Of a stretch of 64,000 nt of DNA, positions 1 through 63,636 are shown piece after piece. Below the pieces are notes generated by a model, which saw only the letters and a list, made by a program, of their open reading frames with translations, did no database searches and was not told the origin of the DNA. Numbering within the stretch: the first letter of the stretch is position 1; every line of letters begins with the position of its first letter. Origin of the DNA: Chrysomallon squamiferum (taxonomy: Eukaryota; Animalia; Mollusca); assembly GCA_012295275.1 (NCBI GenBank), contig CM022675.1:6882001-6946000 (forward strand). Direction: 5' to 3'. A program made the translations under genes and the position numbers.

Positions 1-216
1 ATTTTATATTTAAAAAAAAAAAAGGGAATAAAATTTTAATTAAAATATATATATACACACACACATAATTAATACTTTGTAGAATCCAAATATTTTAGAT
101 TGTTTATGATAATTATTTTATTTCATGAATCTGCTATGATTAATTTAAAAAGTAAAGATACATAAGCATTTCATATTTATAAAAGAAAAAATTAAAATTC
201 TTTCTCTGTCTTTTAG

Positions 217-855
217 GTTGTCAGAAAGGTAAGCCCTGAAATTTTAAAACTGAAATTAAACAAATATCAATATTATGAATCTTGTTTTCTAAAAACAATA
301 ATAATAATAATAAATAAGTTCAGAGTTTATCTTGTAATCTTCTGGAAAACAAATAAAAAATAAAATATTTTGTAACAATTAAAAAAAAAAGAAGTTATAT
401 TAAAAGCAATTCTTAAATTGATCCAGTCACAGTAGACTTTTTCGTTTACTGATAAATATTTAATTTTTATCTCTGTTTTAGCCTCCTGTCAGAAAGGTAA
501 GAAGTGTAATTTACAAGATTAAAAGCAAAAAACATAAAATCTGCTGAAAAAAAAAGAAAAAAAAGAAGTAAATAAATAAATAAATATATATATATAAATC
601 ATTCAATCAATCAATGAAATAAATAAATGATTTACATTTTTAAATTAGGAAATTAAAAATAAAAAAGCAAATAAAAGTTAAGTTTGCTAATTAAAAAAAA
701 AAAATATATATATATATATATAATTAAAAGCAATTCTTAAATTGATTTAGTTTACTGATAAATATTTTATTTTTATCTGTGTTTTAGACTCCTGTCAGAA
801 AGGTGAGCAGTGATATTTTACATTAAAAGCAAAAAAATATAAAATTTGCTGAAAA

Positions 856-902
<47 letters not shown>

Positions 903-2155
903 AAATATTAATCAATAAATAAATAATATTTGAAAATAAATAAAGAAGATAAGGCATGATGAAAAAAAAAAAAAAACTGTATATATAAATATAAAATTTA
1001 AAAAAAAAAAAACTTAATACAAAATGAAATATATCATTTGAAATCTCTCTTTATTTTATAAAAATACTATTCAATCACAATAAACTTTTTACTGATGAAT
1101 ATTTTATTTTTATCTCCGTTTTAGCCTCCTGTTAGAAAGGTGAGCTGTAATATTTTACAACATTAAGAGCAAAATTATAAAATTTGCTAAATAAAAAAAT
1201 AAATATTTCAAAATAAATAAATAAAATAATGCAGAATGAAATATAAATTTGTATATATATATCAATATAAAAAAAATAATAATAATAATAAATTAATACA
1301 AAATATATTATAAATTGTTGCATTCGTCTTTTATTTTAAAAAAAAAATGCTAATCAAAATTTAAAAAACAAAGATCTTTTTATAATTTCTTTTCTTAATT
1401 CCTCTTTCTTTTAGTTTTCTGGAAAAATGGTAAGTTTCTAAGTTTTATAAAGAAAATAAAGAGCATTTTTGTTTTTCAAAAACTGTTAAAAGGTAGTAAA
1501 TAAAAAGGCATAATAAAATTTACAAAAATGAATGATAATAATAATAATAATAATAACAATAATAACAGAGTGGCTGAAATTCATTAGCTAAATGTTCTTG
1601 TTAAAATTATTAATTACTTAGTTAATTATCTAATTAATTACTGTTGAACTGAGTATTTATCAACTAAACATTTTATTCAGAATATATTATTTTTATTTTT
1701 ATTTTTTATGCTTTAGACTTCTGGCAAAATGGTAAGCATTTATATTTTTAAAACTGTAGGAATAATTTGATGTAAATTTCTTTAAAAGAAAACGTTAAAC
1801 ATTTAAAGCAATAAATTCTTTAGAAATATAATTAGAATTTAAAAATTAAAATAAATAAATAAATAAATAAATTTTCAAATATTAAACAATAAATTCCTTA
1901 GAAAGCATCAACTTACTATATAAAAAGAAGTTTATTAGTTGTTTTTTTTCTTTCTCCCATAAATTTGTTTATAAACAAAATTTTTATAAATATTGTTATC
2001 TTTGTTTTAGCCTTTTGGTGGACTGGTAAGCTGGAAAATTTCTTTTTCTAAAAATTTAATAACAAAATTATTGGTTAAATTATGATTTTTTTTTTTCTTC
2101 TGAAATTTAACAAAAATAAAAATAAATTATTTCATAAATATTAATAATAATAAAA

Positions 2156-2198
<43 letters not shown>

Positions 2199-3150
2199 TT
2201 AATAATAATAAATTTTGAATAATAACAAACAATATATAACTAAAAAATTTAAATTATATATATAATTTTTCCTTTTAGAAGTTTGAAACTAAGGTAAGCT
2301 TAATTTTTTTTTACTGATTTAAAAGAAAATAAATTTAATAATTAAAATGCTTAAAAAAACATAATTAAGATATGATGTACTATCAAGAAATTGCTTTATT
2401 AAAAATACAAAGTAAAGTTAATTGAAAGATTTGTGTTTCAATATACTTTTTATTCATTTATTTTATTTTTATTTTTATTATTTTTTTTCCTTTATGTAAA
2501 ATCTTCTAAAATTAAATACATAGTAAAATTAGTTTTTATGTTTATTTATTTATTTATTTTTTTTTTTGACACACTGAATTAAGCTTCCACCATTACTGAA
2601 AATAATAATACTAAAATATAATAAGATAAATATCAATTAAAATAATAACAAAACTAAAACAAAATAACAAGTTTAAAAAGCAAAATAGTCTTATAATGTG
2701 TTAGTAATAGTTAAAGGAAATATTCTTTAAAAAGTTGCATATTAACTTTTTACTTCTACTTTTCTCCTTTTTTAGACTGGAGGAGGGGTAAGCTTTATAA
2801 ACTTTCACTCAAGCTATTATATAATGTCTAAAAAGAAAATTATAATAATAATAATAAATAAATAAACAACATATATTGCAATAAATAAATAAGTTACAAG
2901 AGCAAAAACAGGTATTAACAGTAATGTGTTTTGTTAATAAACATAAAAAATTATATTTAAAGAAAAAAAACACATTCCTGGTTGAATAATAATTTTTTTC
3001 TGAGTTTTTATCAAATAATGATTTTAATAATAATAGTCATTAAAATTCTTCTAGTTACCAAAATGCATGTCTTTTTTTTTTTTTTTTTTCTTTTAGTCTG
3101 GAGGATTGGTAAGTTGGAAATATTTTAATTTAATATAATTTCCTAAATCT

Positions 3151-3214
<64 letters not shown>

Positions 3215-3715
3215 AAACAAATTAATCAAATACAAGTTTGAATTACAATTATTTAATAAACTTTCAAACCAGTAAATGAAATCTTTAAGCTTATGAAAAC
3301 TAATGAAACAAAAAGAAAAAAATTAAAAAATAAAATAAAAATACTAGTAATAATAATAAGTAAACCTGAATAATTATTACATTTCATTTATATCTGTTAT
3401 TGTTTGTCTTTTTATTTTTTATTTTATTTTTTATTTAAAAAAAAAAGAATATTTTTAAAATTATTTTTTGTTACATACTCAGTAGTCAGTAGGCATTGTC
3501 AATTTAGGCAATTTTTTTCTCTCTTTTTTATATGATTATGTGATAATTTAGGGAAAAATTACAAAAAAAAAAAAAAAAAATAATAATAACCACAATAACA
3601 ATAACAGAAACAATAATAATTGTATAAATAAATAAATAAATAAAAGCAAAATATAGATGAGAAAACCATCAAAACACTTACCAAAAATATATATATAATA
3701 ATAATACTTAAAGTT

Positions 3716-3759
<44 letters not shown>

Positions 3760-3963
3760 ATTTTGCAATAATATCAATTTAAAAGAAAAATACAAAAATA
3801 GGTTTATATAACAAAAATTAGGTTTTTAAAATCTTCTTAGCAACTATATATATATTATTATATATTTTTATTTTAGCCTTCTGGAGGATTGGTAAGTTCT
3901 TCAAGTTATTAAAAATTTAAAGGATATCACAAATTTAATGTTTTCATCTTATAATAAACCAAA

Positions 3964-3996
<33 letters not shown>

Positions 3997-6900
3997 TTTT
4001 TTTGAAGACTGTGAAATTATAAAAAAGATAATAATTTAAATACATATTTTACAAAAAATATTGAAAGATGGTATGATAAAATTATTTTTTATATATATTT
4101 TTTTATTTTAGTCTTTTGGCAGTCGGGTAAGCTCTTTAGTTTTATACCAAAAACAGAACCAAAAATTAGAAAGAAATTTAAAAAACCCAAAGCATAAGTG
4201 AACATAATGAAATAGAATTTGATAGCAATCAAACTTTAGTTAAAGAGTAAAGATTCTTTACTTATTTACCATAAATAAATTTTAAAATGTGTTCTTATTT
4301 TATTAAAATAATATTATAATAAATTTTACAAATAATAATGACAGAAAATATTATTATGAAAGAATATTCATAAACTGTATTTATATTTTGAATCCATCTT
4401 TAAAAAATAAATTATCCTTTTTCTAAATGATTGCAAATTATATTTAAAACTGTAATTTTATTTTAAACTGATTACAAAAACACTTTATAATAATTGTAAG
4501 GAAAATACTCTAGATAGTTGGAACTTTAAAACTTTATTTTAATTTTAGTCTGGTGGTGGTGGTACTGGTGGAGGAATGGTAAGATAATATATATTTTATG
4601 AAATAAAATTCAAATAAATAAATTGTATTATATTCAAAATCTGTAGTAATAATCTGAAGTAAATTAATTTAAAAAAGCATCAGTAATAATAATAATAACA
4701 ATAAATAAAAAACAAATAATAATAACAATAATAAAAACTAAATATTGTTGATAGTTTGGACTTTTAAACTTTATTTTCATTTTAGTCTGCTGCTGGTGGT
4801 AGTGGTGGTGGATTGGTAAGATGATAAATATTTTATAAAATGAAATTCAAATATATAAATATATATTAGTAACAGTCTGAAATAAATAAAATAAAATAAG
4901 CATCAGTAAATAAATAAATAAATAAATAAATATAATAGTAATAAAAAGAATTTCCTATATTTAATATCTTCTTCCTGCATTAAAATTATTTAAAAAAAAA
5001 TTAAGAAATATATACTGATCAAAGTTTATATTTAAGACTATTTTTTTTTTCTCTTTGTTTTAATCTTCTGGTGGACTGCTAAGCTTATATTTTTGTTTAG
5101 AATTAAATTTCGTGCAATTAATAATAATCAAATGAAAGTAAATAAACAAATAAATAAAACAAAATTCAAAGTTAAATTATTAAAAATGTTTTTTCTGTTT
5201 CTTATTTCTTTTCTTTTTTAAGTTGGAAATTAATTAAGAGAAAATTAATGTAAATTTAATTTATAATTTTAATTTTTTAATTTTTTAATATTTTTAATTT
5301 TAATTTTTTTTATTTAGTCATTTGGCAGTAGGGTAAGCAGTTTTTATGTATACAAATTATGCAGCTTTTTAACAACAATTCAACCAGAATCAAAATAAAT
5401 ACATAAATAACAATATTAATAATGATAATAATTAAATTAAATATATCAATAAAAATCAATGAAAGAATATGCTTTAATATCTAACATATTTTATTTTATA
5501 TTTATTACAAAAACATTATATAATAATTATAAATACATACTCTAGATAGCTTGAACTTACAAACTTTATTTTAATTTTAGTCTGGTGCTGGTGGTAGTGG
5601 TGGTGGACTGGTAAGAAAACATATATTTTATGAGATAAAATTCAAATAAATAAATATAAATATAAACTGTAGTAATAATCTGAAATAAATTATTTAAAAA
5701 AGGCATCAGTTATAATAACAACAGCAACCACTTATAAATTTATTACAAAAGTAAATAAACAAACACATTTTATAATACTTATCATAAGGCAAATACTGTA
5801 GACATTTGAGCTTATACATTTTATTTTAATTTTAGTCTACTGGTGGTGGTGCTGGTGGAATGGTAAGATGACATATATTTTATGAAATAAAATTTAAAAA
5901 ATATATATACATATATCAAAAACTGTAGTTGTAATGTGAAATAAGTTAAATAAAAAAGCATCAGTAATAATAACAATAATAATAATAATAAAAACAACAA
6001 TAACAACAACTATGTAGAAGAGAAAATAAACTGCTTCACAAAAACATAAAAAATTAAATAGATAAATAAATATATAAATAAAGATATTAATAATAATTAA
6101 ATTAAATATATGAAGAAAAATCAATGAAAGAATATTTTTAATTAACTAAGATAACTATTCTCTGCTGTGTTTATTATAAACACATTTCATTTTTATAAAA
6201 CATATACTCTTGATATTTTAAATCTGTAAACTTTATTTTAATTTTAGTCCACTGGAGGTGGTGCTGGAGGAATGGTAATATGATAATGTGTTACAAAATA
6301 AAATTCAGATATATAATATGTACTTATTAAAAACTATATATAATAATAATCTAAACTAAATAAAAAAACATTCATAATAATAATAATAATAATAAAAACA
6401 ATAAATGAGCTAACAAAGAAATTAAGATTTCATAAAAAAAAAACAATTCAAATAACTTGCAGTTACTTTTTCTTTTGATTTTTTTAAAAAAATGTTTAAA
6501 AAAAGAAGAAAATAATAACATAATTATTCTCTGCTGTATTTATTACAAACTATTTCATAATAATTCTTATACAACATAGACTCTAGATATTTTAACTTTA
6601 TTTTAATTTTAGTCTACTGGTGGTGGTGCTGGTGGAATGGTAAGATGATAACATTTAACAAAATAAAATTCAAACTATATATAATCTAAACTAAATAAAA
6701 AAAACATGCATAATAATAATGATAATAAAAACAATAAATGAGCTAACAAAGAAATTAAGATTTCATTAAAAAAAAAAAACACAATTCAAATAACTTGCAG
6801 TTACTATTTCTTTTGATTTTTTAAATTTAATTAAAAAAAAAAAAGAAATAATAACATAATTATTCTCTGCTGTATTTATTACAAACTATTTCATAATAAT

Positions 6901-7494
6901 TCTTATACAACATATACTCTAGATATTTTAACTTTATTTTAATTTTAGTCTACTGGTGGTGGTGCTGGTGGAATGGTAAGATGATAACATTTTACAAAAT
7001 AAAATTCAAACTATATATAATCTAAACTAAATAAAAAAGCATACATAATAATAATAATAATAAAAAGAATAAATGAGCTAACAGAAATTAAGATTTCATA
7101 AAAAAAAACACAATTCAAATAACTTGCAGTAACTTTTTCTTTTAATTTTTAAAAAGAAAATATAAAAAAAAGAAAGTAATAACATAATAATTCTCTGCTG
7201 TATTTATTACAAACTATTTCATAATAATTCTTATACAACATAGACTCTAGATATTTTAACTTTATTTTAATTTTAGTCTACTGGTGGTGGAATGGTAAGA
7301 TCACAGATTTCATGAAATAAAGTTGAATAAATAAATGTTAATAATAATGATAATGATAATAATAATAATCTAAATTAAATAAAAAGCATCAGTATTTAAT
7401 AATAATAAAACAACCTAGATAACAAAGAAATTAAGATTTCATTAAAAAAATTCAAATAAATTGAAGTCACTTTTTCTTTACATTGTTTTAATTA

Positions 7495-7550
<56 letters not shown>

Positions 7551-7664
7551 GATGAAATAAATAAGAATTAACATTTATTTACATACAAATGTATTATTTT
7601 ATTTTAGACTGGAGGAATGAGGGTAAGCTCAACATTTTATAATTTAGGGCACAGAGTAACATAA

Positions 7665-7709
<45 letters not shown>

Positions 7710-7959
7710 CTTTTTGATGTAAATTAAAATAAAAACAACAGTATAAAAAAAAAGGACAACCAAATTTTACTACAAAAAATCCCATTATAATTAAAATATA
7801 AGTATAAATTTAAAAAAAATATAATCTTAAACTGCTAAAAGAAAATTAAAGAACAAAGTAAAATAAATTAAAATATTTTTAGTACTCAAAATATATATAT
7901 TTAACAACTAATGTTTTTATATATTTTTTTTTTAAAATTAAACACATGAATAATAATAA

Positions 7960-7994
<35 letters not shown>

Positions 7995-10530
7995 AAACTT
8001 TAATGATGATAATCATTAAATTATTTATCTCAAGAAAAATCAGTGAAAGAATTATTCTCTGCTATATTTATTAAAAGCTATTTCATAATAATTCTTAAAC
8101 AGCTATAATAGATATTTTAAATCTGTATTTTAATTTTAGTCTGGTGGTGGTGGTGGTGGAATGGTAAGATGATAAATATTTTATGAAATATAATTCAAAT
8201 AAATATATGCATTTATTAAAAAATAAAATAATAATAATCTAAAATAAATAAATAAACATCAGTAATAATAATAACAACAAATGAGCTAACAAAGAAATTA
8301 AGATTTCATTAAAAAAACAATTCAAATAAATTGCAGTTACTTTCTCTTGATTTTTAAAATAAATCATTAAAAAATTAATTATTATTATAAATAAATAAGT
8401 AAATAAATAAATAAATAAATAAATAAATACAAATATTAATAATGATAATAATTAAATTAAATAGATCAAAATAAATCAGTGAAAGAATATTCTTTATTAA
8501 TTAACATAATTATTCTCTGCTATATTTACAAAAAACTATTTCATAATCATTCTTATACAACATAGCCTCTAGATATTTTAACTTTATTTTAATTTTAGTC
8601 TACTGGTGGTGCTGGTGGAATGGTAAGATGACAAATATTTTATAAAATTCAAATAAATATATTTATTAAAAACTATAATAATAATAATCTAAAATAAATA
8701 AATAAACATCAGTAATAATAATAACAACAAATGAGCTAACAAAGAAATTAAGATTTCATTAAAAAAAAATTCAAATAAATTGCAGTTACTTTTTATTTTT
8801 ATTTTTAAAATAAATCATTAAAAAATTAATAAGTAAATAAATAAATAAATTAATACAAATATTAATAATGATAATAATTAAATTAAATAGATAAAAATAA
8901 ATCAGTGAAAGAATATTCTTTATTAATTAGCAATTATTATCCTCTATATTTACAAAAAAACTATTTCATAATAATTCTTATACAACATAGACTCTAGATA
9001 TTTTAACTTTATTTTAATTTTAGTCTACTGGTGGTGGTGCTGGTGGAATGGTAAGATGATATATATTTTATAAAATAAAATTCAAATAAATATATGCATT
9101 TATTAAAAACTGTAATAATTACAATCTGAAATGAATAAACAGCAGTAATAATAATAATAACAACAACAAATGAGCTAACAAACAATTAAGATTTCAGCAA
9201 TAAAACAATTCAAATTAATTGTCACTTTTTCTTTTGATTTTTTAAAATAAAAGTTTAAAAAAATAATAATAAAAAAAAATATATTTATTTTAATTTTAGT
9301 CTACTGGTGGTGGTGGTAGTGGAATGGTAAGAAGATAAATATTTAATGAAATAAATTGAAATAAATATATGCATTTATTAAAAACTAAAATAATAATAAT
9401 ATAAAATAAATAAAGAAACATCAGTAATAATAACAGCAACAAATGAGCTAAAAAAGAAATTAAGATGTCGTTAAAAAAAAAACTTCAAATAAATTTTACA
9501 GTTACTTTTTCTCTTGATTTTTAAAATAAATGTTATTTTAATTTTAGTCTACTGGTGGTGGTGCTGGTGGAATGGTAAGATGATAAATATTTTATGAAAT
9601 ATAATTCAAATAAATATATGCATTTATTAAAAACTAAGAAAATAATCTAAAATAAATAAATAAATATCAGTAATAATAACAACAACAAAAAATGAGCTAA
9701 AAAGAAACTAAGATTTCATAAAAAAAAAACAATTCAAATAAATTGCAGTTACTTTTTCTTTTCATTTTTAAAATAAATCATTAAAAAAATAATAATAAAA
9801 AATAAATAAATTTAAATTTTACAAATATTAATAATGATAATAATTAAATTTTAATGAAATAAATTGAAAAAATAAATGCATTTATTGAAAAAAACTAAAA
9901 TATTCTTTATTAAATTAAAGAAACATAATTATTCTCTACTATATTTGAGCAAAAAGAAATTATTTCATAAAAAAAAAAAAAACTCAAATAATTTTATACA
10001 ACATAGACTTTTTCTAGATTTTTTAAAATTTATTTTAATTTTAGTCTACTGGTGGTGGTGCTGGTGGAATGGTAAGATGATAAATATTTTATGAAATATA
10101 ATTCAAATAAATATATGCATTTATTAAAAACTAAAATAATAATCTAAAATGAATAAATAAACATAAATAACAACAACATATAAGCTAACAAAGAAATTAA
10201 GATTTCATTAAAAACAATTGAAATAAATTGCAGTTATTTTTTCTTTTGATTTTTAAAATAAATCATTAAAAAAATAATAATAATAAATAAATAAATAAAA
10301 TATTAATAATGATATTAATTAAATTAAATAGATAAAAATAAATCAATGAAAGAATATTCTTTATTGATTAACATAACTATATTTACAAAAAACTATATCA
10401 TAATAATTCTTATACAACATAGACTCTAGATATTTTAATTTTATTTTAATTTTAGTCTACTGGTGGTGGTGCTGGTGGAATGGTAAGATGACAAATATTT
10501 AAAATTCAAATAAATATATTTATTAAAAAC

Positions 10531-10570
<40 letters not shown>

Positions 10571-11692
10571 CAAAACGGGACTGAACCTTATTTTAGCAAC
10601 TTAATAATTTTATTTTTAAATTAAAAACTAAATACATGAAGAAATAATAATAATAATAAATATAAAATACAATTAAAATTAAAACTTAAAATCATTTTTT
10701 GAGTTGTGTACTTTAGTCTACTGAAAGTAAAATTATAGAAGTGTTAGATGTTTTTTTGACAAAATGATAATAAAAAATATTTCTCATAAATAGATAAAAA
10801 ATCTAAACTTCTTTTTTTTTTTTTCTTATAGACCTCTAGAGGAATGGTAAGCTTTTAATTTTTAAAGTAATGAGTAGAATATATTAAAATTTTCAAATCA
10901 ATTCATAATAACAATAATAATAATAATAATAATAATGATGATGATGGTAATTGTCATAGTAATGATGATAATAATGATGATAATAAATGATGATGATGAC
11001 AAAGAAATAAAAGAATTTATTTATTAGTGTAACTAGTAATTAAATAAAGAAAAGTTTTTAATGTACATCTTTCAAAATCACAATTTTTTTTTTTTCATTT
11101 TTTTTTTTAGACTTCTGGTGGAGCGGTAAGATTAAAAAATTTTTACAATTGAATCAAAAAATTTTAAATTAAAAGAAAAATTGTTAAAAAAAAAGAAGTA
11201 AATAAATAAATATATAAAATAATAATAATAATATCTAAGTTTGAAATACAGAGAAATGTATAAACTGAAAATGGGGTTTTGTTTTTTAAGTCTTTTTATC
11301 TGTTAAAATAAAAAATAATAAATATGTTAAAACTGAACAAATATTTAAATAGTAAAAGTTTTTATTTTTATTTTATTTCTATAGGCTTTTAGGAGTGAGG
11401 TAAGCTCAAAAATTCTATTCTATAATAAATATATTACTCAAAATATTATTATTATTTTTTAAAATTAAAAATAATTTGAAATAAAATTTACAAATTAAAA
11501 AATAAAAAATTCATTAAACAACAAACTTTAATTGTTTAAATTCCTCCATTTATATTCCATATTATCTAGTAAATTATAGGGAAATTAAAATTATGTAATG
11601 CATTTTATTTCCAATATTTTTTTTCAATTCTTTTCAGTCCTCTACTGGAAGGGTAAATATTACTGGGTTTTTAGAAAATAATTCTAGTAGTA

Positions 11693-11743
<51 letters not shown>

Positions 11744-12340
11744 GTAATTATAATAATAAAGCTACTCAAATAAATTAAAGAACTTTTTGATAAGTATCAA
11801 AGTAAAAAAATCTAATAAATTTGTTCAAAAATAAAAGATAAAATATAATTTCAAAATTAAAAATAATTATTTATTTTACACTGACTTTTATTTTTTTTTT
11901 TTTATTTTATTTTTTTTAAATTAATTAATTTATTTTTTATTTATTTATTTACTATTCTCTTTTTTATTTTATTCTGTTTTAGTCTTCTGGTGGATTGGTA
12001 AGAGTACATTTTATAAGACATTCATACAAAAAAATATATATATATATAATACAGAATTAATAATAATAATAATAATAATAATAACAACAACAACAGTAAC
12101 AGCAACAGCAATAATAATAAAAACAATGAATGAAATAAGACATTTTTTGTAAAAAGTAAAATTCTACTTAATTAAATTATTAAAATCATTTGTATTATTG
12201 TTTTATCTGGCAAATATTAAAAATAAAATAATTATATATATAAAAAAAAATCATTTTTATTTTATTTTTTTTTATTTTTAGTCTTCTGGCAGTGGGGTAA
12301 GCTCTTAATATAATTAAATTTAAAATAAAAGTAATAAAAA

Positions 12341-12376
<36 letters not shown>

Positions 12377-13332
12377 AATTATTAACTTGCAAAATTAAAT
12401 ACAAAAAAAATAATGATAACAATTTCAAAATTAGCAGCTCTGGTTTATAATATTTTTTAAATATTTGTTTTCTTCTTCTAGTTAATAATAATAATAATAA
12501 TAATAATTAAAACTATAAGATTATTTTAAACTTTTGTTATTATTCTTTTTTCTTTAGTCTTCTGGCAGACAGGTAATTCAATTTTTATTATAATTAAGGA
12601 AAGTAAAAATAAATAAATAAATAAATAATACCAATGACAGTTATATGAAAAGAATATTAAGAAGAAAAAACTGAACAATATTTTCAAAATAATTTTTGGA
12701 ATTATTTTAATTTTTACATTATTAATACAGAGACACAACACAACATAACATAGACATATTAAATTATAAAATATTTCAAAACAAATGAAATAACTCAATT
12801 AAAAATAGTTAATATTTATATATTTAGATATATATATTTTTTTATTATTATTTTTTATTTTAGACTTCTTCTAGTCGAGTAAGCTCTGAATTTCTATCTT
12901 GAAATAACTATTTAAATATATTTTTTTAAAAAAAACCCAAAAAACCAATTACCTAATAATAAACTGCCTACTACTATTTAATAAAAAATAAATAAAAACT
13001 TGAATTAAAACAAAATAAAATGTATTTTATTTTAAAATAAACCAAAAAATAGAAGACATATACACCAGAGCATATAAACAAAAAAACAAAGCTTTATTAA
13101 TTAGATAAACCTATTAATTGTAAATAAAATGGTAAATTAATGGTGTATAAAAATAATTTGTATATTTAAATAACATTCTTTTTCCCTTCTTCTTTCCTTT
13201 TCAATAAAGTCATCTGGCACTCGGGTAAGAAATGGCTTTTTTAATTTATTTATTTTTTTTTTTTATGAAAAACTTTTTGAAATTTGAATTTATTCATTAT
13301 TATTAATAATAAGTGTAATAATAATAATAATG

Positions 13333-13368
<36 letters not shown>

Positions 13369-13853
13369 TAATAATAATAATAATCAAAGTACATGTCAAT
13401 CACCAACAAAAAAATGAAAACAAAATAAATAAATAAAATTTTCCTAATCAAAATGTTATATTTTCAGTAATGCTTATTTTTCCATTATTATTTGTACATA
13501 AAACAAGAAAAACAATACAGATATTTTTAATTATAAATTATTATTATTATATATATTTTTTTTAGTCATCAAGTAGAACAGGCTCAAGGGTAAGTTATCT
13601 GTTTAAAATAAATCAATAAATCAATAAATCAATAAATCATGACAATAAAATTTATATATCTAAGTATTATTTTTATTTTCAAAGAAATATGACATGTAAT
13701 TTTATTTTAATACTGCTACTCTTCAAACTTAAACAAGAAATAATTATTATAAATTAAAGTGTAACAATTTTGAAAATTTAGTTTTATCTTGTCTTTTTTT
13801 AAATTATTTCAGTCTTCATCTTCTCTGAAAGAGGTAAGCTAGGGTTTTTGTCA

Positions 13854-13900
<47 letters not shown>

Positions 13901-14257
13901 TAATAATAATAATATAATATAATATAATAAAATAAATAAATAAATACACTTCAGCAATGAATAATAAAAAATGAGAACAGAAATATTAGATCAATAGTTT
14001 TAAGAAAAAGACATCAACAAAAACATTAATCATCATGAACATCAACATCAATAACCACAGCAAGAAAATAATAATTTTGGATAAGAATCAAAATAATGAT
14101 GATGATGATGATGATGATGTCAGCTATAAAATATTAACTAAAACAACAAAAACAGCAACAATAAAAACAATTAAAAATTTATAATATTTAATATAAAACA
14201 GTTCAATATTTTGTAAATATTACTGTTTATACTTTATAGGCTGATGCACCAAAAGAG
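217..14257 (+). CDS. Array of 41 phase-0 microexons (12-30 nt, 798 nt, about 266 aa) encoding a Gly/Ser/Thr/Met-rich low-complexity region; most likely the N-propeptide region of collagen A (5' end lies outside the window)
   Basis: Each exon is flanked by a polypyrimidine tract+AG and a GT donor (36/41 GTAAG), has a length divisible by 3 and is stop-free in phase 0. Exons: 217-228 VVRK; 482-496 PPVRK; 788-802 TPVRK; 1125-1139 PPVRK; 1415-1429 FSGKM; 1717-1731 TSGKM; 2011-2025 PFGGL; 2279-2293 KFETK; 2776-2787 TGGG; 3097-3108 SGGL; 3877-3891 PSGGL; 4112-4126 SFGSR; 4549-4578 SGGGGTGGGM; 4786-4815 SAAGGSGGGL; 5318-5332 SFGSR; 5581-5610 SGAGGSGGGL; 5836-5862, 6248-6274, 6613-6639, 6949-6975 STGGGAGGM; 7277-7294 STGGGM; 7608-7622 TGGMR; 8140-8163 SGGGGGGM; 8599-8622 STGGAGGM; 9024-9050 STGGGAGGM; 9300-9326 STGGGGSGM; 9548-9574, 10045-10071, 10456-10482 STGGGAGGM; 10832-10846 TSRGM; 11111-11125 TSGGA; 11385-11399 AFRSE; 11638-11652 SSTGR; 11983-11997 SSGGL; 12282-12296 SSGSG; 12558-12572 SSGRQ; 12864-12878 TSSSR; 13210-13224 SSGTR; 13566-13589 SSSRTGSR; 13813-13833 SSSSLKE; 14240-14257 ADAPKE. 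Phase 0 is supported by synonymous differences between copies (GTC/GTT, TCT/TCC, GGT/GGA, CGG/AGG); phase 1 hits TAG in exon 1125. Confidence 0.88.
400..1200 (+). repeat. Tandem exon+intron duplication units (about 300-340 bp) carrying the xPVRK microexon
   Basis: Shared intron motifs (aaaagcaattcttaaattgat; tttactgat...ttttatct..gttttag; attaa.agcaaaa...ataaaat.tgct) around exons 482, 788 and 1125. Confidence 0.8.
5064..5078 (+). pseudogene. Dead microexon (SSGGL) with both splice sites mutated
   Basis: ttttAA-TCTTCTGGTGGACTG-CTaagc: the exon body is nearly identical to 11983-11997, but the acceptor AG is AA and the donor GT is CT. Confidence 0.75.
5780..10520 (+). repeat. Tandem exon+intron duplication units (about 250-500 bp) carrying the STGGGAGGM microexon
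   Basis: Intron blocks recur around each exon (aaatgagctaacaaagaaattaagatttcat; ttcataataattcttatacaacatagactctagatattttaactttattttaattttag). The units before 6613, 6949 and 7277 are nearly identical (exon spacing 365, 336, 328 bp). Confidence 0.9.
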
Positions 14258-15405
14258 GTAAGCCTGATGGAAATGTAAAACAGACATGATTAAATACTTC
14301 CATTTCTGAAAGTGTTTTTTCTTTCCTACACTTTCAAAAATACCACAAAAACAAATACCAGAAAAACAGTTACATTAATAAAACTGAAACAAAACTAATA
14401 TGAAACATTCATTTTTTTTAATTTACTGATGTCATGTATAATTTTTTTTATATAAAACTAACATACAAAATTAAAAAATTAAAATAAAAAAGATGGAAAA
14501 AGATCCAGTTAAACATATTAAAAAAGAAATAATATCGGAAATTAAAAAATATTATAATAATTATAAATAAAAATAATAAACAAGATAATATAAGCAATAA
14601 AGTAGTAAAAAAAATAAATATTCCTCAGCAAATAAAAAATAATGAAAAAAACCCCCCAAAAAACAACAATAAAAATACTATAATTAATTCATTAGGACAT
14701 TTTGGGAGACTAAATATGGGGAAAAAGAATAATAATAAAAAATAAATTAAATAACAAATAGGTGATATCAAAAATTGAAAGAATTCTTTTCTCAGAGTAT
14801 TTTAAATAAAAATGTAGAAAATTACTAATTCAACATATTATTCATTATTCATTATTTTTTTACGAATCTGAAATGGGATAGTGCATGTGATGCAAATATA
14901 AATAATGCCTTATAGATATTAGTAGAAAGAGAGTTAAATTTAATTCCCAAACCAACCTCCTTTTTTTCTTTAAAATAAACCTTTGAAAGCATGTGGGTAG
15001 TATATGATGGCTTCTGCTTAACTAAGTGCATTTTCCACTTTGAAACTGATCAGTTTAACTGTACAGATAATAGTTATTTCATTAATTAAAAGCATCATTT
15101 TAAAATAATTTAAATCTAGTTTAATATTTTAATAATCACTTCTTGTTATAAATAAGGTGCAATTAGATTTAAAACAATATTTCTACCAGGAAAAGGATTT
15201 TAGTTTTTCTTTTTTTCTTTCTTGCTTTCTTTATTTTTATTTAGAGATAAATGCTGGCTTCTAGAATAGTATTTGATTAATTTCAATAACCAAAGAAAAA
15301 ATATTTATTTTACACTTTAGAGAAACCATTAAAAATCTGCTTACAATTTTCATTTCCCTTCAACTAATTTGTACCAATCTTGGATATTAAAAAGAGAAAA
15401 AGCTC

Positions 15406-15572
15406 AAAATCTTTATTAAAATATATTTTTTTTATTTATATTAATGAACTCACCAATATTAAAAAAAAAAGAGAGAGAGAGAGTTTTTATATATATATAT
15501 ATATATATTTTTTTTTTTGATATTGGTGAGATCATTAATATAATAAATAATATTTATTTTAATGAAGTTTTT
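15406..15572. repeat. Imperfect inverted repeat (about 65-bp arms) around a (GA)n/(TA)n loop
   Basis: tatattaatgaactcaccaatattaaaaaaaaaa on the left pairs with ttttttttttgatattggtgagatcattaatata on the right; pairing extends outward with mismatches. Confidence 0.8.
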
Positions 15573-15994
15573 ATATGTATGTGTATATTGTACAAATTAT
15601 ATAATTAAGTAAATTATTTCCTAAAATAAATCTCCATCTGAAAACAGCAGAAACAATGGAAAAATAAATCGGTTAATGTTTTTCAAATAATTAACAACGA
15701 CAACACAAAATACTGACTGGAAATAAAAATATACAGCTAAACATAAAATAAAATCTTAACACTGGGCAAAAAAACAATATTGGTTATTTATGTCCATTTT
15801 CAAAAATATGATGTCAGATAATCTCCCTTGTATGAAATCTTTTTTTGTAAAATCAAGGCCTAGCCTATTAATGTATTATACTTCAGTTTTGGAACAGTAC
15901 TTGAATATTAACAAATATGTGGCCACATGTTTTACTGATTTGATTATAAGTACATAAATTATGTACATACTTCTCATCTTTCATCTATATACCT

Positions 15995-16013
15995 TGACGT
16001 CATAACCAATCAG
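15995..16013 (+). promoter_or_regulatory. Adjacent CRE palindrome (TGACGTCA) and CCAAT box (AACCAATCAG)
   Basis: ttgacgtcataaccaatcag; motif match only, lying in the 2.5-kb gap between the array and the telopeptide exon. Confidence 0.35.
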
Positions 16014-16494
16014 AATACAAAAAATTTAGCACTATTCATTTCTGGGATATATTGCAGGTGGATTATTTTAGTTAATTAACGTAATCTTCCATTACTATTC
16101 TTACCTACTAATTTCCTTCAAAAATGCTTTAAAACTGATCCTGCTCTGACAAAGCATGTCAGAAAAAGCTTCTGCAAAATTAAATTTCAGTTGACCAAAT
16201 GATAATGGAGGTGATAGCAATTTACTGATGTCATGTATGGTTTATTATATTTTATATTGACCTCCATTCATTCTGGTTACTAACAAAAGATGGATGCACA
16301 CTGACCATTGGATCTGCCACTGAAATCCAATGCTTAATGTCATTTCTATATTATGTCTCATTAAATTTAAATATTCCCACTGTTTATATCTTTCTTTATT
16401 AAATGTTTATTAATTGTTATTAAAATTCAATTTTGTTTACTTTAAATATGTAAAAATTCTGAGTATAGCTTTTCATTGTAGATAAACACATGTC

Positions 16495-16775
16495 TTAACT
16501 TCATTATTTTAGGATTTGTCACTGCATTAATTTATGTTTATGTTTGAAATATGATACTTACTTTTCTTTATTTTTTAACTTAATTAATTTGTATTTATAT
16601 TGAAAATAGTACCTACATTTCATTATTTTAGTATTTTAAACTTAATAAATTTGTATTTTGATAAAATATGGTAGCTACTTTTCATTATTTTAGTATTTTA
16701 ATCTTAATAAATTTTGTAATTTGATAAAATACAGTACCCATATTTTGTTATTTTAGGATTTATTGCTTAATTATT
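16495..16775. repeat. Degenerate minisatellite of about 60 bp
   Basis: Recurrent ttcattattttagtattttaa.cttaataaatt.tgta.tttgataaaata units. Confidence 0.65.
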
Positions 16776-16819
16776 ATTTTTTTAAGACATTAATTATTTG
16801 ATTTGTTTGATCACTGTAG

Positions 16820-37922
<21,103 letters not shown>

Positions 37923-38044
37923 ACATTTTTCAGACATTTAGATTTTTGTGTTCATATATGTATTCTTACTAGAGCTAAGGTACAGTGGGGCCAATAAAAA
38001 TAAAAATTGTAGTTATTTGCCTTCATATTATGTAATAATGTTAT

Positions 38045-38400
38045 TTTAGTTACTTAAGCCCATGTTGATGTTAAGCCCATTTAATTTTATTTGGTTACTT
38101 AAGTCCATATAATATTACATAAACCCATTTAATATTCCTTGATTACTTAAGCCCACAAATTTATATTGTTTCATAAGCCCATCCAATATTTCCTGGTTAC
38201 TTAAGCCCATCAAATATTTCCTGGCTACTAAAGACCATATAATATAACCTGGTTCCTTAAGACCATTTGTTTTTAAATCCCTGGTTTCTTAATATTATAT
38301 GGTTACTTTAGCATTATTTAATATTACATGGTTACTTAATATTATGTGGTTTCTTAAGACCACTTAACATACATCTGATTACAAATATATGTAAGCCCAT
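38045..38400. repeat. Degenerate tandem repeat of 20-30 bp in the putative collagen A 3'UTR
   Basis: Many ggttacttaagcccat-like units. Confidence 0.75.
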
Positions 38401-38616
38401 TCGAAATCCGTCCATTAGTTTATCAGTGTATTTGTTTTCTTTGCAGTTATTAGTGCTTCATTTTCTTTTTAATGTAATAGATTTTAATATTTTCTTCTCC
38501 TTCTTTTTTATCTTCTGTGATGCAAAACTCACTTCATACTTTTCTGTGATACCCAAAAAAACAAACCTTCACTGCCAAATGTTTTGTGAGTGTATGCATT
38601 AAAAGGGGGTAAAAAA

Positions 38617-38641
38617 AAATGTCCACATCTTCTTAAAATAC
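38617..38641 (+). other. 25-nt element AAATGTCCACATCTTCTTAAAATAC, identical to 43844-43868
   Basis: Exact direct repeat on the + strand, so it is sense in the putative collagen A 3'UTR and antisense in the putative collagen B 3'UTR. AATAAA motifs follow from about 38672. Confidence 0.85.
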
Positions 38642-40298
38642 TATTGTACAATTATGATGATCATTGTGAAAAATAAAAATAAAAAATAAAATTTTTGAAA
38701 GTTTTCATTTTGATTAACGGTTGATCATGTTGCAATGAAAAACCCGTTAATTATTAATAAAAAAAAAATGTAAAAAAAAAATTTGATGAGTTTTTTTTAT
38801 TATACATTTGTATTATTGTTAATATGTTAAATGGTTAGCTAAATAACATTGAAAGGGTGTACACAATTTGAAGAAGAGGAACCAACATTCGATCCTTGTA
38901 CTTAAGAGTTGTCAGGATCATGGCTTAACCATTTGTTGCATCAAGTTTTTCTGCAACAGTTACAATAATTTTCAATTTATTTCAAATTTAAATTTCAAAA
39001 ATACAAAAATCAACAAAATAAATAAATTAATTAATAGTTTCAAATTTCAAATGAGGATCAGTTGTATTTTGACTGTAATAAAAATGACTGTAGCACATTT
39101 CTAAAAAAATAATTATTCAAATATGAGTGACTGTATTTTTAAAATTACTTAAAAGTGAGAGAATATATTTTCAAACTATTACCCTTAGTTGCAAATGCAT
39201 TTCAGTATTGTTATTAGCATATGATTTAACACATATTTAAACATAATTTATAAAAAAAGAAAACCCATTTTGAGACTGTTTCTCCTGTTTATGGGAATAC
39301 TTATTGAAGTATTAAAAATTATATTTCAAACCTAGCTAATAAATAAAGTTAATTTTATAACTGAAAATGAAATAACAATATTAAAATTATTATTGAAAAA
39401 TGTAAAAGAAACTACTTGAAATAATAATAATGATGATGATGGTAATGTAAACAACAATGGCAACAATATGGGTAATAATTATAATTATAACAAAAATATT
39501 AATACTGCCAATAACTACTTTGGTAAATGAGGCAAATGACTGATACCGCAATTGACGATTTTTTGGATTTTTTATTTTATTGTTTTGTTTTGTTTGTTTT
39601 TGTTTTTTGTTTTTGTTGTTTTTGTTTTATTTTTTTATACAAAGATTTTATTTTAAAAACATAAAATATAAATGGTTAGAATGAGGATTTTGCATCTTTC
39701 AAGTCGGAGCTTCTGAAGACCTTAGCCGGCCCCAAACCCGTCGCCCAAATTATTTGGCTATTATTATTAAGTGTTTTTTCCGCATTTCAAAAAGAGTCTA
39801 GTTACGGCCTTGATAATAATAACAACAACAACAATTATATCAAAACAGAATGATAAATAAATATATAACACTAATAATGATAATATTAAATAATTTACTC
39901 ACTGATTAAAAGTGATGGATCTTAATCATGCATCTTCACATCAGTAATCAAGAACATTCCATGCACTTTGATATGCGAATCCAAAAATAGCCTAACAAGT
40001 ACTCTAAGAAGTTTTGATTCTGTAGTCTTATCATTCCTTGGGTGGCCTAATTGTTCTACCACAGAGCTACATCTTGATAACATTCTGAGTAAGTTCATAA
40101 TATCGTTTTGTTTATAATCTACGAACAAGAAATTGAAGAAGACCAGTTAAAGAAAATTGTAACACGTCTGCTTACATAGATGGCGTCATCGTTTCGTAAA
40201 AAGAGTTACATTTGAGATCGATGTTCTCAGTGTAATTTTTAAAGATGAAATAAGTTTCAAAAAATAATTTTAAATTTAAAAAAAAAAAAAATTATAAT

Positions 40299-43868: not shown

Positions 43869-44027
43869 ATTGGTCCATAAAGTGAAAAATGAAAAAGACA
43901 CTTCACAGAACAAGGACTATAACTCAAACAATATGAATTTTATTACCATTAAATGTTTTTTTTTTTTTTTTGTTTGTTTAAAAAAATAAAAAGAGAGATA
44001 AGTAATTTAAAATAAACGTGTATTTGC

Positions 44028-63636
<19,609 letters not shown>

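Follow-up and report, generated by a model that had tools for sequence, protein, structure and literature searches.

The window analysed here is a 64,000-nucleotide stretch of DNA from the mollusc Chrysomallon squamiferum (contig CM022675.1, positions 6,882,001 to 6,946,000, forward strand). It carries at 217..14257, upstream of the N-telopeptide exon of a fibrillar collagen gene, an array of 41 microexon-like units. The array is a real feature, and in both RNA samples with coverage of the telopeptide exon the main transcript omits all 41 units. We consider it an even chance that these units, within a long intron of an otherwise ordinary fibrillar collagen gene, are cassette exons that are off by default and become activated in some tissue or stage.

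The microexon array

Splice-site matrices were trained on 68 triple-helix exons from both collagen genes of the window and are independent of the array. When the + strand was scanned with them over 1-14400 for acceptor-donor pairs enclosing 6-45 nucleotides (nt), 53 pairs were found, 47 of which have lengths that are multiples of three. They include 40 of the 41 units, the others being overlapping alternatives and a few weak extras; the unit that was missed, 6248-6274, has a weaker donor (GTAATA) and was identified by eye. On the minus strand this region yielded 11 pairs, four of them symmetric, and in 100 block-wise dinucleotide shuffles the means were 6.3 pairs (maximum 13) and 2.3 symmetric pairs (maximum 7). 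The existence of 41 tiny symmetric units, proposed earlier in a sequence-only reading of this DNA, is thus upheld at a level far above the shuffles.

All 41 units are bounded by AG and GT, range in size from 12 to 30 nt in multiples of three, and amount to 798 nt or 266 codons. The most common length is 15 nt (20 units), followed by 27 nt (nine units), with three units each of 12, 24 and 30 nt, two of 18 nt and one of 21 nt. The spacing from unit to unit is 207-768 nt, with a median of 305. Joined end to end, the units are free of stops in frame 0, while frames 1 and 2 contain 7 and 13 stops, and they are in frame with the phase-0 telopeptide exon, as the sequence-only reading had stated. The units have a G+C content of 52%, the sequence separating them one of 15%. 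The donors had also been described as near-consensus, which agrees with the counts: GTRAG is found in 38/41 units and in 41/68 helix exons, and 40/41 units end in G, compared with 24/68 helix exons. On the helix-trained matrix the unit donors score slightly below those of the helix exons (medians of 8.3 and 10.0). The array may extend upstream past the window start, since unit 1 lies only 217 bases from the edge, less than one spacing.

The transcript across the telopeptide exon

A search of sequencing read sets with 35800-39000 returned eight runs. Four of these are RNA from a single study of one organism and contain 35-40% of the words. The contigs of four runs (X1, X4, X5 and X6) were compared over 16800-16935, which contains the following exon:

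16820-16921, + strand, N-telopeptide exon of 102 nt, both ends in phase 0, joined downstream to 17209 in RNA

Runs X5 and X6, from other organisms and with a small share of the words, have nothing on this exon and are uninformative. The contigs of the same-species runs X1 and X4 cover exactly 16820-16922, without other letters, and in both of them the telopeptide exon runs on into the helix exon at 17209. Upstream of 16820 both carry the same 30 loose letters; translated in frame, these give a Cys-rich tail that starts with CCPKCP. This tail, which represents the final 10 codons of the preceding exon, differs from unit 41 (ADAPKE), and a 15-base piece of it has no match in the window at two mismatches. 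The upstream exon joins the telopeptide exon in phase 0, the same frame as the stop-free units. Because the telopeptide exon is joined to a Cys-rich exon from beyond the window, the main transcript in the two covering samples omits all 41 units, and the array probably sits in an intron of more than 16.8 kb that follows a VWC-like exon.

Two successive Cys residues near the C-terminus characterise VWC and WASP modules (PMC2852846). The ten-codon CCPKCP tail, whose exon lies beyond the window, fits a VWC or the related WASP module, and a VWC-type module is probably encoded by the gene upstream of the window. The two covering contigs hold 336 and 375 nt upstream of the telopeptide exon, from which we infer sufficient room for an untranslated region (UTR), a signal peptide and one VWC-sized module. 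The X1 contig of 4951 nt, comprising 336 nt upstream, 3897 nt coding and 718 nt of UTR, fits a complete short mRNA. The earlier statement that no VWC module is present in the upstream 16.8 kb is correct within the window, but the RNA places a VWC-like exon farther upstream. The idea that the array replaces this module and feeds the normal N-terminus is not supported, both covering runs joining the Cys-rich exon and leaving out the 41 units. No minor triple helix is seen before the telopeptide, whose exon follows immediately on the Cys-rich tail; some fibrillar chains are likewise without one (PMC2852846).

A separate feature was seen in one of the two covering runs. At 16890 a 77-nt contig of X4 with a depth of 83 leaves the telopeptide exon and continues for 47 letters; a 15-base piece taken from these has no match in the window. 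The branch could be an insertion allele, a paralog or a library chimera.

Units, blocks and the encoded peptide

The units are arranged in four blocks, listed here together with one dead copy and the intron segment that follows the array:

217-228, 482-496, 788-802, 1125-1139, + strand, block 1, units 1-4, basic Pro/Val motif, e.g. PPVRK
1415-1429, 1717-1731, 2011-2025, 2279-2293, + strand, block 2, units 5-8, Gly/Ser/Phe/Lys
2776-2787, 3097-3108, 3877-3891, 4112-4126, + strand, block 2, units 9-12, Gly/Ser/Phe/Lys (all block 2 units 12-15 nt)
4549..10482, + strand, block 3 as a whole, units 13-29, young tandem copies, 55% Gly and 10% Met, e.g. STGGGAGGM
4549-4578, 4786-4815, 5318-5332, 5581-5610, 5836-5862, 6248-6274, + strand, block 3, units 13-18
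6613-6639, 6949-6975, 7277-7294, 7608-7622, 8140-8163, 8599-8622, + strand, block 3, units 19-24
9024-9050, 9300-9326, 9548-9574, 10045-10071, 10456-10482, + strand, block 3, units 25-29
5064-5078, + strand, dead 15-nt copy, would encode SSGGL, acceptor AA in place of AG and donor CT in place of GT
10832..14257, + strand, block 4 as a whole, units 30-41, 38% Ser and 12% Arg
10832-10846, 11111-11125, 11385-11399, 11638-11652, 11983-11997, 12282-12296, + strand, block 4, units 30-35
12558-12572, 12864-12878, 13210-13224, 13566-13589, 13813-13833, 14240-14257, + strand, block 4, units 36-41
14258..16819, + strand, intron segment from unit 41 to the telopeptide exon, 2562 nt

There are 35 distinct sequences and 32 distinct peptides among the 41 units. 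Gly, Ser, Thr and Ala make up 72% of the 266 residues, Lys and Arg number 25 as compared with five Asp and Glu, and Cys, Tyr and His are absent. The composition predicts a disordered basic spacer, which would account for about 16% of the coding sequence if all units were included. A cryptic minor triple helix in the array was considered and ruled out, the longest Gly-X-Y run being three triplets.

Origin of the array and signs of selection

Tandem copying of exon plus intron is seen in the flanks common to units 2-4 and to most of units 13-29, some young copies being 95% alike across 222 nt. With simple repeats masked, flank homology groups the 41 units into 21 clusters. Nineteen of these are singletons, whose flanks score no higher than unrelated introns; flank homology is undetectable for units 7-12, and 11 of the 12 units of block 4 are singletons. 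Among the 13 singleton 15-mers the exon identity averages 55% with flanks at background, and T is fixed at exon positions 4 and 6. The nine 27-nt copies differ by 0.041 substitutions per site in the exons and by 0.16-0.23 in the flanks (36 non-independent pairs).

All 21 cluster representatives are symmetric with AG and GT, and splice sites and frame are intact in 41 of 42 copies. Since clusters with unrelated flanks have all retained splice sites and frame, the sequences point to selection.

Proposed function and alternatives

The reading of the units as default-off cassette exons draws on the excess over chance, the 21 symmetric clusters, the low divergence of the exons, the near-consensus donors, the phase-0 partner exon, the agreement of the X1 contig with a complete short mRNA and the sea urchin precedent described below. 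The array would have grown by tandem copying of an exon-plus-intron unit of about 300 nt, in old and young rounds. Exons of 12-30 nt would be skipped by default and would need a cell-specific activator, with the strong donors helping. Inclusion would insert up to 266 flexible residues, rich in Gly, Ser, Thr, Met and Arg, after the likely VWC module and ahead of the telopeptide. The long chain would bear a disordered, net-basic N-propeptide spacer, which might exert its effect in procollagen or in those fibrils from which the propeptide is not removed. While attached, this spacer could restrict lateral fibril growth, or alter fibril spacing and elasticity. The retained N-propeptides of vertebrate minor collagens are described as limiting fibril diameter (PMC2852846).

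Several observations weigh against this reading. A join of a microexon to the telopeptide exon is seen in neither of the two covering runs, whose reads were not aligned to the array itself, and neither contig branches at 16820; contigs lose rare forms, and both samples come from one study. The 5' exons lie beyond the window, and the link between array and gene depends on the 30 loose letters. No relative carrying such an insert was recovered in the protein or representative searches. One copy (5064-5078) is dead, with both splice sites gone. Codons of the 20 15-mers that differ by a single base do so synonymously in 11 cases and non-synonymously in 30, or 27% synonymous as compared with 28% for random changes, and the 27-nt family has only three synonymous to two non-synonymous differences. 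Constraint at the amino acid level thus appears weak. Since splice sites are kept while codon changes look random, selection seems to target splice signals, frame and composition more than exact residues.

Another possibility is that unit subsets vary freely wherever the array is active, as in the schistosome micro-exon genes (MEGs), so that N-propeptides would range continuously in length and composition. The frame is preserved whichever units are combined, the units offer 35 distinct sequences and 32 distinct peptides, non-synonymous divergence among them is as free as synonymous, and MEGs have similar exons, symmetric and mostly of 15 nt (10.1101/2023.06.21.545858). The only form seen, however, includes none of the units, and symmetry is no proof of combinatorial use because duplication of a phase-0 unit would produce it anyway. 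We regard free variation as rather unlikely. We are equally doubtful about a wider proposal, in which a splicing dial of the MEG kind evolved independently in a structural collagen: one cell type would draw subsets from four distinct blocks of 41 or more microexons, making tunable elastomeric N-termini under a non-neural regulator not yet described. The blocks (basic Pro-rich, Phe/Gly, rubber-like Gly/Met, and Ser/Arg) would then give block-copolymer procollagens.

The units might also belong to another transcript of the same strand, such as a collagen isoform from an alternative promoter with the units in place of the VWC module, a short secreted product of VWC plus microexons that stops short of the telopeptide, or a nested MEG-like gene. 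The collagen mRNA is seen without units, the 5' end of the array lies beyond the window, and the gap of 2562 nt after unit 41 is more than three times any other gap in the array and differs in composition. Against this, the gap has only three acceptors of at least 7.5 bits, all with a stop 3-21 codons further on and none marking a distinctive last exon, and the unit phase agrees with both collagen neighbours. Units 9, 30, 31, 35 and others also match the TSGGG part of the telopeptide in frame at 67-75%, a weak hint of common origin. A separate transcript is in our opinion improbable. Still less likely is an array that is disused or artefactual, that is, a by-product of intronic tandem duplication or a region inflated or misplaced by assembly error. 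Inclusion is unseen in the covering runs, one copy is dead, certain young copies match one another at 95% across 222 nt, and assembly errors probably occur nearby (the 1-nt gap in 34187-34230 and the 150-nt duplication at 31041-31340). But splice sites and frame are kept in 41 of 42 copies although most old units have lost flank homology, and neutral decay that erased the introns would also have erased the AG, the GT and the 52% G+C of the units.

If the cassette reading is correct, the set of microexons is far larger than the 10-20 exons per gene of MEGs and resides in a free-standing structural gene. The array would be invisible to gene predictors and, because the main mRNA skips it, to standard transcriptomes. 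It would be a test case for the switching on of dozens of 12-30-nt exons without neural eMIC marks, and for the tuning of collagen fibril mechanics in an invertebrate by a splice-encoded Gly-rich spacer. Forty-one conserved microexons with no use seen are surprising, and this is easily testable; should inclusion never be found, the retention of splice sites in 41 of 42 copies would remain a puzzle.

Comparison with known systems

The nearest known case is conceptual, the sea urchin 1-alpha collagen with its array of SURF modules. An alternatively spliced chain of this kind was reportedly described by Exposito in 1992. In Strongylocentrotus purpuratus 1-alpha (COLP1alpha), a 22.8-kb intron holds one VWC and 16 SURF exons, which are missing from all embryonic cDNAs and partly present in four larval expressed sequence tags; the long form perhaps corresponds to an 11-kb mRNA (PMC2852846). 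In both systems a very long intron near the 5' end of the gene, in the N-propeptide region, contains a frame-preserving array of tandem exons that adjoins a VWC module, a probable one in the present gene, and is left out of the main cDNA; the rare long isoform is that of the sea urchin. SURF modules are folded and have four cysteines, whereas the 41 units here are of low complexity, encode 4-10 residues each and have no Cys in 266 codons. In addition, the set skipped in the sea urchin includes the VWC exon, while the present transcript retains its VWC-like exon and shows no minor triple helix. The array occupies the position, N-terminal to the telopeptide, where other chains bear a minor helix or SURF modules.

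Collagens are secreted, and the long chain would share with MEG products a secreted, probably disordered character. Schistosoma MEGs have 10-20 microexons per gene that form most of the coding region, make small products and are described as restricted to flatworms (PMC4350168, 10.1101/2023.06.21.545858). The likeness to the exons described there is one of architecture and not of sequence comparison: symmetric exons of very small size, most of them 15 nt, follow one another in a long series with introns of hundreds of bases. The units differ in being an optional part, about 16%, of a large collagen and in numbering 41 or more. The earlier label of MEG-like therefore stands for the exon architecture but not for the gene, an ordinary collagen with a helix of 1014 residues. 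At best the array works like the centre of a MEG; it is not a member of that group.

Tissue-specific splicing of the N-propeptide is described for vertebrate COL2A1 exon 2 and for the variable-region exons of COL11A1 and COL11A2 (PMC9320522). These are one to a few exons of normal size, in contrast to the microexon array. Abductin of the bivalve hinge ligament is a Gly/Met-rich rubber protein with a GGFGGMGGGX domain (PMC13052691). Block 3, with 55% Gly, 10% Met and almost no Pro, resembles this domain in composition only, which suggests by analogy a random-coil elasticity; unlike abductin as described there, the units have no Cys or Tyr residues for cross-links. No published microexon array in a fibrillar collagen propeptide was found among the papers listed by a library that lacks most subscription journals.

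Signals in the surrounding intron

Neural microexons regulated by eMIC/SRRM3-4 are very short, are skipped by default and have a UGC near the acceptor and a long AG-free zone (PMC8797185). The units resemble them in the very short exons and the likely default skipping, but the eMIC marks are not shared. UGC near the acceptor occurs in 1/41 units and 2/37 helix exons, and the median AG-free zone is 36 nt in the units and 54 nt in the helix exons. Regulation of the eMIC/SRRM type was rejected as improbable, both the UGC and the long AG exclusion zone being missing. No intronic 5-mers are enriched besides A/T-rich words, and among the inverted repeats of 13500-17000 there is no convincing long-range pair able to loop out the array.

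Three features were noted between unit 41 and the telopeptide exon. The words TGACGTCA at 15995 and CCAATCAG at 16006, which we take to be a cAMP-response element (CRE) and a CCAAT box, stand 3 bases apart (15995-16013), each as the sole copy in the window; the pair is a possible intronic enhancer or internal promoter. At 15429-15550 there is a 42-nt inverted repeat, 88% complementary with arms 38 nt apart, possibly a non-autonomous transposon of small size. At 16500-16790, directly upstream of the telopeptide acceptor, a 62-nt unit is repeated in tandem three to four times.

The host collagen gene and its neighbour

The window is very AT-rich (16-31% G+C per 2 kb) and contains two fibrillar collagen genes arranged tail to tail. 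Downstream of the telopeptide exon, the first gene consists of:

17209..34230, + strand, 38 triple-helix exons, 1014 residues, one Gly-to-Ala at helix position 598
34663..37922, + strand, C-telopeptide and COLFI C-propeptide exons, 250 amino acids, 6 Cys, stop at 37920-37922

The gene model is open through to the stop after one N is added in the 44-nt exon 34187-34230. With this base supplied, the major triple helix has the 1014 residues of an A-clade fibrillar collagen. PF01410 scores above its cut-off in two of the three C-propeptide exons scanned, as expected of a COLFI propeptide, and the last C-propeptide exon matches the human alpha1(III) and alpha1(I) C-propeptides in the PDB. The short C-propeptide and the imperfection at position 598 are presumably reminiscent of abalone chains.

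Protein searches recovered no usable relative; of the 22, 3 and 753 candidates none passed. A representative protein search gave 19 matches at E up to 0.001, including one unrelated bacterial-looking protein, with fragments 35-59% identical and none extending to the N-propeptide. A metagenome scan found two loci, both 3' fragments. In the ESM Atlas the COLFI exon of the window had no match, and the sequence of a relative gave generic COLFI clusters.

The second gene, at 43900-63636 on the minus strand, has helix exon sizes nearly identical to those of the first, and its 5' end lies beyond the window. Exon 34187-34230 is one base short within a C run, and a direct duplication of 150 nt at 31041-31340 takes in the start of helix exon 31323; both are probably assembly errors. 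Helix exon 27436-27651, of 216 nt, corresponds to four fused 54-nt units and carries the Gly-to-Ala change at position 598. A phase-0 exon of 21 nt at 35179-35199, in the C-telopeptide region, is a microexon beyond the array.

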